From Eledone cirrhosa (Eukaryota): a DNA stretch of 64,000 nt. Each line of letters begins with the position of its first letter. Position 1 is the first letter of the stretch. The stretch is taken from the NCBI GenBank assembly GCA_964016885.1, contig OZ024742.1:238204001-238268000 (forward strand), given 5' to 3'. The notes beneath the pieces were generated by a model, which worked only from the letters and a program-made list of their open reading frames with translations, was not told where the DNA came from and searched no databases. The translations under genes were made by a program, and so were the position numbers. Below are positions 21,757 through 59,460 of the stretch, in pieces.

Positions 21757-21960
21757 ACAAAGAGGGTGTGGTAAGATACCAGGTGAACCATAACGCACCA
21801 CAGTACTCAATACTTAGGGTAGTAGAGAGGGTAATAGGAAAAGAGTCAGGACCCCGACGGCTGAGCTGCGGCCGTTTCGACACTAGATCCGTTTGCATCT
21901 GTTCGGTTCTAGCTGTCGAAACAGCCGGAGCTCAGCCGTCGGTGTCCTGACTCCTTTCCT
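21757..21960. mobile_element. Fold-back pLTR-like element, family A (3' half of hammerhead on each arm)
   Basis: Inverted arms 21834-21887/21908-21962 containing GAAAC-stem-GTC; ~80-nt unpaired left extension; (TA)n on both sides. Confidence 0.8.
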
Positions 21961-22177
21961 ATATATATATATATATATATATGTGTGTGTGTGTGTGTGT
22001 GTGTGTGTGTGTGTGTGTATAAGGCGCCAACTATTTGCTGTAATATAAAGGAAGAAAAGATGAAAGAAAGTATTGATCCATTGATCCTTATGAAGGATCT
22101 GTCTACGATAAATTGCTGCCTATGAAATATCTTTAACATATCGATTTTTAGACTCATTATTTCAATAGCAGGAAATA

Positions 22178-22353
22178 AGGGCGGTGAATTGGCAGTATCG
22201 GTAGAGGGTTGGACGCCATGCTTTCTAGCATAGTTACGTCCCTTTACAGTCTGAGTTCAAATCCTGCCTTTCATCCTTACGGGGTCGATAAAATAAAGTA
22301 CCAGTAATGTACTGGGTAATTGCTGGCCTTGTGCCTAAAGTAGAAACAATTAT
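22178..22353 (+). mobile_element. SINE S1 with target-site duplication
   Basis: S1 body flanked by the direct repeat attatttcaatagcaggaa. Confidence 0.85.
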
Positions 22354-22699
22354 TTCAATAGCAGGAATAGTTTGTATACCAAACTTCCAGAAACCGCGCC
22401 TTTCAATAATTTTATGTAAGAATCTTTGTTATGCTATGCTCCAAATAACACCTACACAATAAGAAAGTTAGGTACATTACTAAATCCTTCCAAATTCTTG
22501 ATTATTTTCAAAATTATTTGAAAATCACAAACTGTTTCATTCAGAAGAAATATGATCACAAAAGGTATAGCTATGAGGGATGGTTTGATATGGTTGTTAC
22601 ATTTGAACCATGGCCGTCTTTTCAGCAATAGAGGAACAATAACATAAAGATCTGGTGCCTTATAATTAGTACTTTGTATTGATTATACAATGTCCCAGC

Positions 22700-23110
22700 T
22701 ATTATTTTTATTATTTTTTTTGTTCTGATTACTGTGGTTTTTGTTGAATTTTTCTTGAGGTTTGTTGTTATTAAAGTTAACAATCTCTTAGCCAGTGCTT
22801 GGGCTTCAATGAGTTATACACAATTATTTCAACTCAATGTTTGGTAAGCTGGCAAACCTTGGTTTTAGCACTTCTTACTCTCACCGGGCTATAAAAAGTG
22901 CATTTTGTACGACACAGTCCTCTCTTATGCATGCTAAATTATCTAACAAGTCATAAAACAATACAACCCTCTTCATGTATTTAACACTGATGCTACGCTG
23001 CACAAATTATTTATTTATTTATCGTATGAAATAGTTATATATCTGTAAAAAAATATATGATCCGTTAAGATTCAGTAATGCACCCCTCTGAGGTTTTTCA
23101 CCTAGACGGA
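22700..23110. repeat. Unclassified dispersed repeat (also at 56370-57110 and 57290-57720)
   Basis: Shared blocks such as cgacacagtcc..atgcatgctaaat and ttcagtaatgcacc.ctctga. Confidence 0.5.
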
Positions 23111-24304
23111 TACCTATTTGACCATAATAATAGTGCCGGTCTTTGCCCAGGTGGGTTGGCTTGGCATGGTTGTTACATTGAATAATGGTTATCTTTTTGG
23201 CAACAAAGGAACATTGACATTGGTAGTGCATTTTGTCCTTGAGCAAGATTTCAAGTTGATCCAATCAAAATTGAGTTGTGTCTGTAATTCAAAGGGCCAG
23301 CCTTATCACACAATGTGTCACGAAAAATCTCCCTGAGAACTATTTAGGAGTATACATGCCTGTAGATTGATCAACCATTTGCATGATACTTTCACGAACA
23401 GGCTCTTCTGTTGATAAAACTGTTGGAATACTTGTTATGGAAACCGATAGAGATCCAACGTTATGTTGTGTATGTATCTACTCATATATATATACATATA
23501 AATATATAGAGAGAGATGAAGTTTCACACGCATGAACGCACACAGATAAAGGGGGGAAAGAGGAAAAACGCCAGACACAGACATGAATGAATCCATTTTA
23601 AAACATTTGTGTCCCCCACCACCACTTATACACACACGCTTGTTTAACTTTTAATTGTATTTTACGAATTCGAGTTACTAATTTTAGAATGAGTTTGTGT
23701 TTCTAGTGCTTGTGTGTGACAGGCGGACAAATAATCCAATACAATCACTACGATATAGATTAAGCAATCTATTTCTGACTTCAAATCCTTTAAAATAAAC
23801 TGGAATCATTTTCTACTACAATTCGTTATATTCAATAGTCGTTGGAGATGGTACTAAAAATAAACTACAACAAACAATACATAACTATAAACGGCATATT
23901 GAGATATCTATTGCTGTCTGGGAATATATTTCAAAAATGTTTGTGATAAAAGTAACTGCAGTTTTTCAAACTTTTTATAACTCAAATAGAAACTGCTTCC
24001 TGTCAAATTCTATATACATCTTGATCTGAACATTCTCCATGTGTACTTTTTGATGAGTCCCCGTTAACTCTTAATATACCGTACCGCATGAAACTGCATT
24101 AGCAAGACGTTCTTCAAAAGTACAACTGCCCCTTCATCACACTAAAAAATAAAGCCCTTAATCTAATGGTGCAAACTTGTAGAATAATTTGTACATACTT
24201 TAAATAGCTGAATTAAGAAACTTACTACTATTTATTTTCTGCAAAATCATTACAGGATATTAAAGGTCAAATAACAACCATACATGCACAACATTATTTT
24301 TAGC

Positions 24305-24492
24305 ATGAATTGGCTGTATCGGTAGAAGGTCGGACGCCATACTTTGCAGCGTAGAGTTACGGCCCTTTATCATCTGATTTCAAATTCCGCCAAGGTTAAC
24401 TTTGCCTTTCATCCTTACGGGGTCGATAAAATAAAGTACCAGTTATGCACTGGGATAATCGCTTGCCTTGTATCAAAAGTAGAAACAATTAT
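24305..24492 (+). mobile_element. SINE S1
   Basis: Matches the S1 consensus. Confidence 0.8.
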
Positions 24493-56380: not shown

Positions 56381-57906
56381 CACATACCTGGATGGTTTTA
56401 TCTAATTATAAACTATTTGAATGGAAGAATAGATCAGACCTTCTACAAATTTCTAACAGATTTAATTATTAAGTTCGCTGTCCATCTTCTCATCGACCAT
56501 ATGAATGAAGTATACGACTGCCATATACGTTTTATGTATTTCCTTTTCTTTTTACAACTTTTAGATGTTTGCATAATAATCTTTTCGCTGGTTTTCTTTT
56601 ATTTTGTGCTTGTTCCGATCTTTCAAGCAATAAATGTGTTTATATATTGCTTGCTTTCATTCTTTGTGTATATTTTATCGGTCAGATTAAACTGACAACA
56701 GCAGAAAAGCATTCACACTTTTATCTCAAGCAATGCGTCGTAATCAGAGCCGCTGCCTGGTTGTTTACGGTTCTAGATTAGCTCTACAATGGGTGACCCC
56801 TTTCTCCTGAAAATAATGATTTCAACTTGTAAACTGACAAAATTAGTTTTTGACACTTATTGCTCGGACAACACTAAGAACATTATTAAGCCTGCATTTT
56901 TAACTCCACAGACCACACTCCTCCACACTAGATCATGTGACAGCTCATAACACCATACGACTCTCTCCTCCACTTTGGATATTTCCATGAAGCTGATACA
57001 TGGCAAAATTGTTTAATGATTTATTTCTTGATCACAAGAAATTAATATATATTTACGTTAATTGTGTTCTTAAAGGTTCAGTAATGCACCTCTCTGATGT
57101 CTACGGTTACCTAGTTGGCCTTACTGGTAGTGCTGTCACCGGGTTCCTTGTGAGATAGTTAAGCAGCTGAACTGGTTGATAGATAAATAAGGAAGGTTGG
57201 TTCTGTCACACATCTGTAAGATATTATTTGAACTAGACCATAATACTTCTGCACCAATGCATCGTGACCAGTCTTCACCCGCGTAAATAACGTACTGGGT
57301 TAGATCTATGTGTGCCCCCTTCTCCTAAATATAATAATTTCAACTTACACTTTAGTAAGCTGTCGAAACTAGTGTTTAGCACTGCTTGCTCTGATCACAC
57401 TAAGAATATTAAAATTACTAAGCTTGTGTTTTCCACGACACAGTCCACATCCATGCATGCTAAATCATGTGAAATTGCCGTCCATTTAGCTTTCTATTTA
57501 TTTTCTCCTCTTAACAACGACTATACTAGTGAACTACAACCACAATATGTGTTTTATGGATTTCCTCGTCTGTTAATAACTTTTAGATGTTTGTATAAGA
57601 ATCCTTTGAGTGGTTTTCATTCATCTTTTTCTTGTTCCGATCTTTCAAATAAAAGAATTATTTATTTCTTGCTTCGTGTATCTTTTATCGGTTAGATTAA
57701 ACTGACAATAGCAGAAATACATTCACTTTTATTTGCAGCTCTTCGTAAGGCCACTTCAATTCAGTGCGTCATAACTCGTGTGATTTAAAGTCACTTACAA
57801 AATATGGAGGCATGGCTGTGTGGATATGGTGCTTGTTTCGCCACCACTTAGTTGAAATTGGTATATGGAAACTGTAGAGATCTGTCGTATATATATATAT
57901 ATATAT

Positions 57907-58100
57907 TCAATATAGAAATGGCTTCTACAGGACTAGAACTGTTTCATTTGGGAGAAATCATCAGGGCTTCCTGATGATTTCTCCCGAATGAAACAGTTCT
58001 AGTCCTGTAGAAGCCATTTCTATATTAAATATTTATACTCTGCTATGTATTGAGTACCTTACTTACTGTGGTTACCCCCGATTGCACCCGGGATAAACTT
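57907..58100 (+). mobile_element. Fold-back pLTR-like element, family D
   Basis: Arms 57909-57965/57970-58026, ~75-nt right extension, (TA)n flanks. Confidence 0.85.
57965..58015 (+). ncRNA. Type I hammerhead ribozyme motif
   Basis: ggcttc-CTGATGA-tttc tccc gaat-GAAA-cag ttctagtc ctg-TA-gaagcc: 6-bp stem I, GUA triplet. Confidence 0.85.
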
Positions 58101-58939
58101 ATATATATATATATATATATATATATATATATATATATATACTATAAATTGTGTCCATAGAATCATTTGATAAGATATATACACCATTTCCTCTCCCAAT
58201 CAGCATAATCAACCACACAAAAAAACAATTAAATCAGGCTATAAGATTAAAAGGCAACTAAGAAGAAATAATAGATAAATAAACGACAGCCATCTATTCG
58301 CTATCAACAGCTATCGAATATTTACCCAGCATTTCAATAGCACGTGGAAATCGATTAAATATATCGTCAACCATACACAATTAGGTATAAAATTAAAGTT
58401 AGAAGAAAAAAAATGTATATAAACATACCAGGATTACGTTTCTACCCCTTGGAGTTTCATTCACTTTTGGAAATATCCGATCAAGGATAAATTCTCGAGC
58501 TTCGAAATCATCAGGAAACAAACTCACTTGAACGCTAGAAACGAATTCAAAATGGCTAAGAACTGTGACGTGGCAGTGGTCAAGTCAGAAAGAATGTGAT
58601 TGGTGCCTTACTGCGAGTGGGCTGGTTGCTAGAAAGCGCAGCCTAATATTGCCTAAATTGCATCTCAACCTTATGGGACATTATCAAATATAAAGATTTA
58701 CATATACACAAACTAGACAAAGTCATAGATATATATATATATGTTTTTGGCAACCATTCACGATGTGGCTCAATGATGAATTAATTAATTAAATAATCAG
58801 AGCAATATACTATAAATTGTGTCCATAGAATCATTTGATAAGATATATATATATATATATATATATATATATATATATATATATAAACAAGTATGTCAGT
58901 GGAAAAATCAACACCCCAATCATTTTGAAACTGTTAGTA

Positions 58940-59046
58940 TCCCTCTGAAGAGACGGAATATACGATTATAGACACAGATTATGCTAAATGTTTCGCAGCA
59001 TTTCAAATAACTGGGTGTACAACTACTTCGAAACATATGTAAGGGA
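58940..59046 (+). ncRNA. Type I hammerhead motif with long stem II insert
   Basis: tccct-CTGAAGA-ga...(~80 nt)...tc-GAAA-catatg-TA-aggga. Confidence 0.65.
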
Positions 59047-59310
59047 ATAAATATGGTTTTTCAAATGATAGAAGTTGATTTTTCCATCGATGTACTTGTT
59101 TATATTTGCTCTGCATTTATGCCTACACCTCCAAGTCTTTATTGCTAATAACTTCTTTCTCTTCAAACTTATATTATAGAAACGCATTGAGCTAATCCTA
59201 AAAAGACGTGGCAATTACATGTTGTCATATAATTTTCTACTTTCCTTCGAGTATTGTTTTTATAGTTCTAACTGTGATATATATATATATATATATATAT
59301 ATATATATAT

Positions 59311-59460
59311 AAACCAAAGAAGGTGTGGTAAGATACCAGGTGGACGATAACACACCAGAGTATTCGATACTTAGGGTAGTAGAGTGGGTAATGGGAAAAG
59401 AACGGACCTAACTGTCGAAACGGCCGGAGCTCAGCCGTCGGGGTCCTGACTCTTTTCATA
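59311..59460. mobile_element. Family A fold-back element, internally truncated
   Basis: Family A extension joined to an inverted gtcGAAAcggc..gccgTCggggtcctgactcttttc arm. Confidence 0.8.

Follow-up and report, generated by a model that had tools for sequence, protein, structure and literature searches.

Short and long arms of a Penelope-like element are paired at two fixed end points in the genome of Eledone cirrhosa

How does an insertion come to consist of two inverted copies of one sequence, of which one regularly extends 80 nucleotides (nt) further than the other? The question is raised by a stretch of 64,000 nt of Eledone cirrhosa DNA (assembly GCA_964016885.1, contig OZ024742.1, positions 238,204,001 to 238,268,000; hereafter the window, in whose coordinates local positions are given), in which the original prediction had pointed to four fold-back insertions, here E1 to E4, with the same asymmetry of about 80 nt. 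Judged from their sequence, these inserts are head-to-head pairs of 5'-truncated arms that belong to a Penelope-like element (PLE) bearing protein motifs of the Hydra clade. The 80-nt asymmetry, a short arm paired with a long one, is found genome-wide and far beyond chance. With the C of the hammerhead's GUC taken as position 0 of the element, we think it probable that the inserts are truncated PLE insertions, each composed of a +20 arm and a +100 arm and generated by twin priming on one capped RNA.

All four inserts are present where they had been predicted, with ends at +20 or +22 on one side and at +100 or +102 on the other, and the end points of the long and the short arm differ by 80 nt in each (in E4 as read from its sequence). 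E2 (35302-35501, arm ends +100/+20) is composed of a long arm on the minus strand (-39 to +100, 35302-35441, locus L323) and a short arm on the plus strand (-39 to +20, 35442-35501), which meet in a blunt head-to-head joint at 35441/35442; the loop-less palindrome of 114 bp described there is real (35385-35498) and 100% perfect. The spacers and the deletion that had been read into the other junctions held up in part. E1 (21754-21962) does contain an insert of about 9 nt (21892-21900) similar to the arm's own 5' end, located between a minus-strand long arm of the E1/E4 subfamily (about -36 to +102, 21754-21891) and a plus-strand short arm (about -39 to +22, 21901-21962), as read against subfamily copies; for the most part, the junctions reflect unequal 5' truncation. 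The supposed 550-nt spacer of E3 (45065-46123, +100/+20) turned out to be extra upstream element sequence of its short arm, which starts at -716 (to +20, 45358-46123, plus strand) against -192 for the long arm (to +100, 45065-45357, minus strand), the latter being 99% identical to the autonomous unit (locus L031). Here the 80-nt tail that separates the two end points (+21 to +100) occupies 45065-45144 on the minus strand. Likewise, the supposed deletion in E4 (59309-59461) is a long arm that retains its far end and halted at about +12, just beyond the putative short priming site (59309-59401, minus strand), beside a short arm from about -36 to +22 (59403-59461, plus strand). Identity between the two arms of an insert is 82% in E1 and 98% in E3.

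The same pair of ends recurs over the whole genome, where we read about 430 loci in detail (some of which may be segmental duplicates). Exact 26-mers of one subfamily gave 6,769 matches to the short end and 7,107 to the long end. Plotted over genomic copies, arm end points are fixed at two sites rather than random: among 214 arms from 140 fetched loci, 96 end at +20 and 95 at +100. The claim that each insertion has one end of each kind was confirmed as well, since 146 of 169 junctions, obtained from 200 loci picked by pattern, are long+short, with one short+short, one long+long and 21 having an unclassed end. Along the first 63.7 Mb of contig C1, the listed matches form by their coordinates 64 head-to-head pairs, while 69 are unpaired by exact match; by pattern 61 pairs are short+long, none is short+short and three were scored as long+long, two of these having one arm at +23 and one being an internal pseudo-long-terminal repeat (pLTR). 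An adjacent inverted partner was found for 103 of 118 short arms, and it ends at the long site in 98 cases, continues into the open reading frame (ORF) in three, ends otherwise in two and never ends at +20. Raw reads of two other DNA runs, both from one study, also contain loose ends at both bases (2544/2302 and 7384/8007 reads). An allele (G or A) that appeared specific to one arm was an effect of query selection, given exact counts of 35 for A-short, 43 for A-long, 6,769 for G-short and 7,107 for G-long. The rare A allele stands on both arms in two pairs (C13:22986792-22986901 and C21:15476344-15476465), which exceeds the prediction from its 0.5% frequency and is expected with a shared template or a master copy.

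The original prediction also assumed an autonomous PLE with a matching pLTR, and such an element, with a 3.5-kb unit, exists in the same genome. A search with the shared core returned two direct copies 3.5 kb apart. Locus L061 is a partial tandem with a period of 3534 bp, forming the pLTR, and locus L062 contains a frame of 731 amino acids with YRDD and a C-terminal YIG region; both of these long copies carry a frameshift. No Pfam family (0) was returned for the L062 protein and nothing significant was found by PDB sequence search. Among 7,999 candidates scored it has 795 relatives, mostly at about 40% identity. The best matches of its predicted fold (pLDDT 84.6) are telomerase reverse transcriptases (RTs), and a single ORF with a seemingly telomerase-like RT is what is expected of PLEs that encode an endonuclease (EN+). 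In the alignment of the protein and its relatives the YIG motif is kept, as are R, E and N downstream of it, and the Pfam GIY-YIG match is weak (one of 20 relatives, E 0.012). The protein further contains RWR (RWK in the relatives), SDKT, CNCPDRSIC (CxCx5C), CNLC (CxxC) and CKH (CxH); no CCHH was seen in the putative EN by eye in the alignment, which had no CCHH-bearing reference. Further characters of EN+ PLEs are found in the pLTR tandem of L061 and in the inverted pairs, namely an inverted 5'-truncated copy and a tail, and (TA)n runs flank the 139 pairs examined for target preference.

A putative hammerhead, with a three-way fold, GAAA and GUC, is kept in the 71 arms that reach that far, and its U3-A8 core agrees with PMC4209133. 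In the window, the complete candidate motif, of type I with the U3-A8 core variant and a long loop II, lies at 46015-46108 on the plus strand, with its GUC at 46101-46103. Rfam gave no match at gathering thresholds and otherwise chance matches only. The 3534-bp unit exceeds the size of Hydra-clade elements, which PMC8557442 gives as generally below 3 kb, a tendency and not a strict criterion. At internal pLTRs the tail continues into the ORF leader (386 exact matches), whose ATG is at +191; both end points are therefore internal to the RNA. Two subfamilies, the E2 type and the E1/E4 type, have an identical build. We conclude that the element is a new family within a known kind, whose anatomy is largely in print already. 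A non-LTR retrozyme, with tandem direct repeats each bearing a complete hammerhead (10.64898/2026.07.22.740005), does not fit short copies that are inverted pairs in which the ribozyme mostly lacks its 5' half; nor does a miniature inverted-repeat transposable element (MITE) or another DNA transposon with terminal inverted repeats fit termini 80 nt apart and junctions that all differ. Four successive internal pLTRs spaced by about 3.54 kb occur at C1:91476610-91487254 and at C1:437200356-437210966, and such arrays of tandem full-length units could stem from multimeric or circular RNA.

What fixes the two end points? Both finish in TAT, which fits the (TA)n target. Target duplications could be read in six informative pairs out of 139, with a length of 14 bp in five and 16 bp in the sixth, compared with 0.28 in shuffles. 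At two loci (L199 and L276) the target ends in GTA and the short end lies instead at +23, at a UAC of the RNA, with 14 bp duplicated, which suggests that pairing between primer and template sets the register. From the TAT microhomology, the +23 shift and the in vitro result of PMC11167929 we infer that the end points are priming sites. Of the claim that there are two such sites, one for each target strand, the occurrence of one end of each kind per insertion stands, and no particular strand can be assigned to either end because (TA)n is symmetric.

The other boundary, where the arms stop on the 5' side, is nearly as regular. Most arms (158 of 214) stop between -33 and -44 and only two between -45 and -116, so that the usual boundary falls within the hammerhead's loop II, some 45 nt downstream of the ribozyme's 5' edge. 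A TYAGT at -42 to -38 is kept across subfamilies despite their differing loop II; in the window it forms part of an Initiator-like TTAGTC (46061-46066, plus strand), where A(-40) is 46063 and might be the main transcription start. Reverse transcriptases copy the mRNA cap as an extra G. A non-templated G adjoins 17 of 30 arms that end at A(-40) and 19 of 78 that end elsewhere (p=0.003). With A(-40) and A(-35) pooled, the figures are 23 of 36 and 13 of 72, and for inserts of at most 4 nt 16 of 19 and 6 of 30. The -35 position was picked after seeing the data, and one-base inserts were scored for both arms, which weakens this part of the case. Our literature search found no passage on cap copying by RTs. 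A 3' splice site as the boundary was rejected, given that arms continue through the AG to -44 and that no common upstream exon appears at the junctions. Hammerhead cleavage as the usual boundary was rejected too, as most arms extend beyond position 0; where a long arm does stop between -6 and +1, as in a few cases, its partner mostly reaches about -40. No convincing conserved structure was found in the tail, for which single-sequence folds differ between subfamilies (z-score 0.99). In five loci (L283, L287, L290, L292 and L303) an arm has an extra segment starting between +162 and +213, which looks like template jumping after run-off; four of these re-primed segments stop again at -29 to -43, and that of L303 at +84.

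Were the two arms copied from one RNA or from two? In 236 junctions both arms run past -46 in 33 cases, while one arm does so with the other in the -46 to -32 zone in four and with the other stopping short of that zone in nine. Among the 148 junctions without length bias, both arms reach beyond in six, against about 0.4 expected from the arm rate of 15/296. Among the 51 unambiguous junctions inside this zone, the two ends fall together on one side of -36/-37 in 43 (26 expected) and coincide exactly in 17 (7.3 expected). The position of the extra G follows the same pattern: with G at -35 the partner is no longer than -36 in all five junctions, and with G at -40 it reaches -38 or beyond in 11 of 14. 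Moreover, five long arms stop at +12 to +19, and a read-through arm that adjoins a short arm in L069 comes to a halt at +19. In 69 junctions the arm that is longer upstream is the short one in 24, the long one in 31 and neither in 14 (for instance, -2623 vs -176). Since either arm may be the longer upstream, a single cDNA copying itself is excluded.

Integration could then proceed as follows. The duplication of about 14 bp seen in the flanks would arise from staggered nicks that leave 3' overhangs, and the last 3 nt of each overhang might pair with UAU at +18 to +20 or at +98 to +100 of the RNA. Both cDNAs would be extended toward the RNA 5' end, where the one started at +100 would have to pass or displace the one started at +20, and would sometimes stall. 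Most RNAs may begin at about -40, in loop II of the upstream hammerhead, in which case the cDNAs would be only about 60 and 140 nt long, often with a cap-derived G. The cDNA ends, which the junctions show to be joined blunt, via overlaps of 1-2 nt or with short templated inserts, would be sealed by a pathway that gives a new fold-back with each joining event; the rare long or full-length copies could derive from RNAs of greater length or from a start within the downstream pLTR. A more general proposition, for which we see the chances as evenly balanced, is that twin priming is obligate for PLEs. One complex would bring the two target overhangs, whose nicks lie 14 nt apart, to two fixed sites on a single capped sense mRNA, the tail being the distance between the sites. 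A promoter internal to the hammerhead would leave the upstream ribozyme incomplete, yielding mostly copies of 60/140 nt and, in several families, tens of thousands of small palindromes.

Other explanations have to be weighed against twin priming on one RNA. Each nick could use an RNA of its own, with an asymmetric complex forcing +20 on one and +100 on the other. Such dual priming accounts for the pairing and for overlapping cDNAs without strand displacement, RNAs transcribed in one cell from a single master locus would fall into the same length class, and twin and dual priming are sometimes hard to distinguish (PMC2837659). Yet it does not predict 5' ends that agree to the base in the start zone (43/51, 17 identical), a cap position that tracks partner length or long arms that halt at +12 to +19, and we regard it as unlikely, if worth keeping in sight. 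Alternatively, one RNA with the same two ends might be read up to a roadblock at -33 to -44, which could be a bound protein, the folded ribozyme or a tether that allows the leading RT only about 60 nt. Long copies, which mostly go past -44, would agree with this, and in two further fold-back families of the window, B and C, the stops lie, judged by eye, at a comparable distance and close to the 5' edge of the family's own hammerhead. Against a roadblock speak the extra G at A(-40) and A(-35) ends, the sharp upstream edge (158/214 arms at -33 to -44, two at -45 to -116) and the segments re-primed at +162 to +213, which stop in or just short of the zone, at -29 to -43; we give it a small chance.

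In PMC8557442 it is considered likely that the tail arises by an endonuclease cut, so that one end would be an RT start and the other a cut in a longer intermediate. Both ends lie at an AT-rich TAT, a plausible cut site; however, both join the duplicated target directly, the short end shifts by 3 nt and so keeps its pairing with the target, and in vitro RT starts coincide with both edges of the tail (PMC11167929), which makes this origin very unlikely. Self-priming, in which a strand snaps back to serve as its own template or antisense RNA primes on itself, was put forward for head-to-head PLE junctions (PMC3846280) and would suit the many near-perfect palindromes. We find it highly improbable here, because the tail cannot come from copying the short arm, nor can copying the long arm give a product that outreaches it upstream, whereas either arm can be the longer (24 short, 31 long and 14 equal of 69), and because the extra G is located at the sense 5' end. 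Finally, the inserts could be artefacts of assembly or of amplification fold-back, the danger that the original prediction had named for itself; palindromes are a known artefact of whole-genome amplification. Arms that are asymmetric, mutually diverged (82% in E1, 98% in E3) and set in different flanks, ends that are fixed over thousands of loci, and the same ends with some opposite-strand joints in the raw reads of other runs leave this explanation a negligible chance.

Several observations weigh against twin priming on one capped RNA as we propose it. Early stops are more frequent in the long arm, at 29 vs 7 overall but only 14 vs 7 over the stretch shared by both arms, in a count that misses short arms of less than 20 nt. 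Segmental duplicates among the loci would not be independent events. In 22 of 139 pairs, with an interrupted flank, no matching duplication is seen under the strict rule, and PAc, the Poseidon element of Anolis, starts RT alike on both strands in vitro, with no homology to the cut DNA (PMC11167929). A TATA-like box at -69 is missing from the E1/E4 subfamily. No RNA run was listed as containing the element, and the transcription start and the cap are what we infer from DNA alone. Of about 18 long read-through copies only two (L282 and L288) begin near -40 and most begin further upstream, so that a second class of longer RNAs has to be assumed.

How much of this is new? Published work already covers the tail, the inverted arm and RT starts at two internal sites (PMC3846280, PMC8557442 and PMC11167929), and the two-site idea is thus partly in print. 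In PAc, two internal RT starts downstream of the hammerhead bracket a tail of 30-40 bp and, as here, both strands of an AT-rich target are cut and extended; insertion does not need hammerhead cleavage (PMC11167929). The element described here differs in using one site of each kind per insertion and in a 3-nt homology that sets the register, and both its sites lie upstream of the ATG (+191). With Hydra-clade PLEs, including Hydra-1_Obim, it shares one ORF with an RT followed by a C-terminal region of putative GIY-YIG type, the motifs RW(K/R), DKT, CxCx5C, CxxC and CxH, a hammerhead motif and (TA)n targets. It belongs to a different family from Hydra-1_Obim, whose hammerhead and protein sequence differ when compared by eye, and departs from the clade in its 3.5-kb unit (vs <3 kb) and in RWR instead of RWK; its tail measures 80 nt, compared with the 30-40 bp given for PLEs (PMC8557442). 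The Penelope unit likewise has a head-to-head junction, an inverted 5'-truncated pLTR, a one-ended tail, and TATA and Inr-like motifs in the pLTR, with target site duplications of 8-10 bp. PMC3846280 treats the tail as optional and derives the junction from self-priming on an antisense template, whereas here a tail is present on one end of nearly every pair, which fits two priming events on sense RNA. In twin priming of L1, too, a second nick primes within the same RNA and leaves an inverted segment between target site duplications. That is a variant route, with a variable internal site and non-overlapping fragments (PMC2837659), whereas in the present element it would be the usual route, starting from two internal sites of fixed position and giving cDNAs that overlap in the stretch they copy. 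Among the titles and beginnings of abstracts returned by our literature search, whose coverage mostly leaves out subscription papers, none concerned obligate short+long pairing, a template shared by the arms or cap copying in PLEs.

The origin of inverted arms and one-sided tails in PLEs is described as an open question (PMC8557442), and the sole in vitro study leaves the later steps of integration unvalidated (PMC11167929). The added value of the present inserts is a base-exact footprint of the PLE integration step. From insertions made in vivo it yields predictions for a reconstituted reaction, namely starts at +20 and +100, one per strand, pairing over 3 nt, a stagger of 14 nt, a single sense RNA and cap copying, and for these inserts the evidence disfavours antisense self-priming. 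Furthermore, palindromes of about 200 bp are very numerous, with more than 13,000 arm matches in one subfamily, while two other families gave 10,493 and 7,605. Such palindromes could pass for MITEs or microRNA-like hairpins, and the parent protein described above is missed by Pfam.

These two other families are the fold-backs B and C. Family B (26174-26383 and 44860-45029) has a hammerhead-like core of its own, a short+long build and a tail of about 55-65 nt, and its count of 10,493 refers to exact 17-mer matches genome-wide. Family C (57907-58099) forms a palindrome of 124 bp, has a tail of about 70 nt and a putative hammerhead with CTGATGA...GAAAC, and gave 7,605 exact matches; its arm lies in identical flanks at 8 of 30 loci, where it is therefore carried within a larger repeat. 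Another hammerhead-like motif (TTGAGAAG...GAAAC...GTA) stands at 44700-44750, beside an assembly gap at 44431-44630. Terminal inverted repeats of about 100 bp, 96-100% identical, delimit two elements at 59467-60308 and 7744-9046, which presumably resemble Tc1/mariner; the former directly adjoins the short end of E4. Further palindromes of 91-222 bp are located at 41607-41828, 43356-43455 and 38055-38145, and a tandem repeat with a 37-bp unit at 51517-51865.

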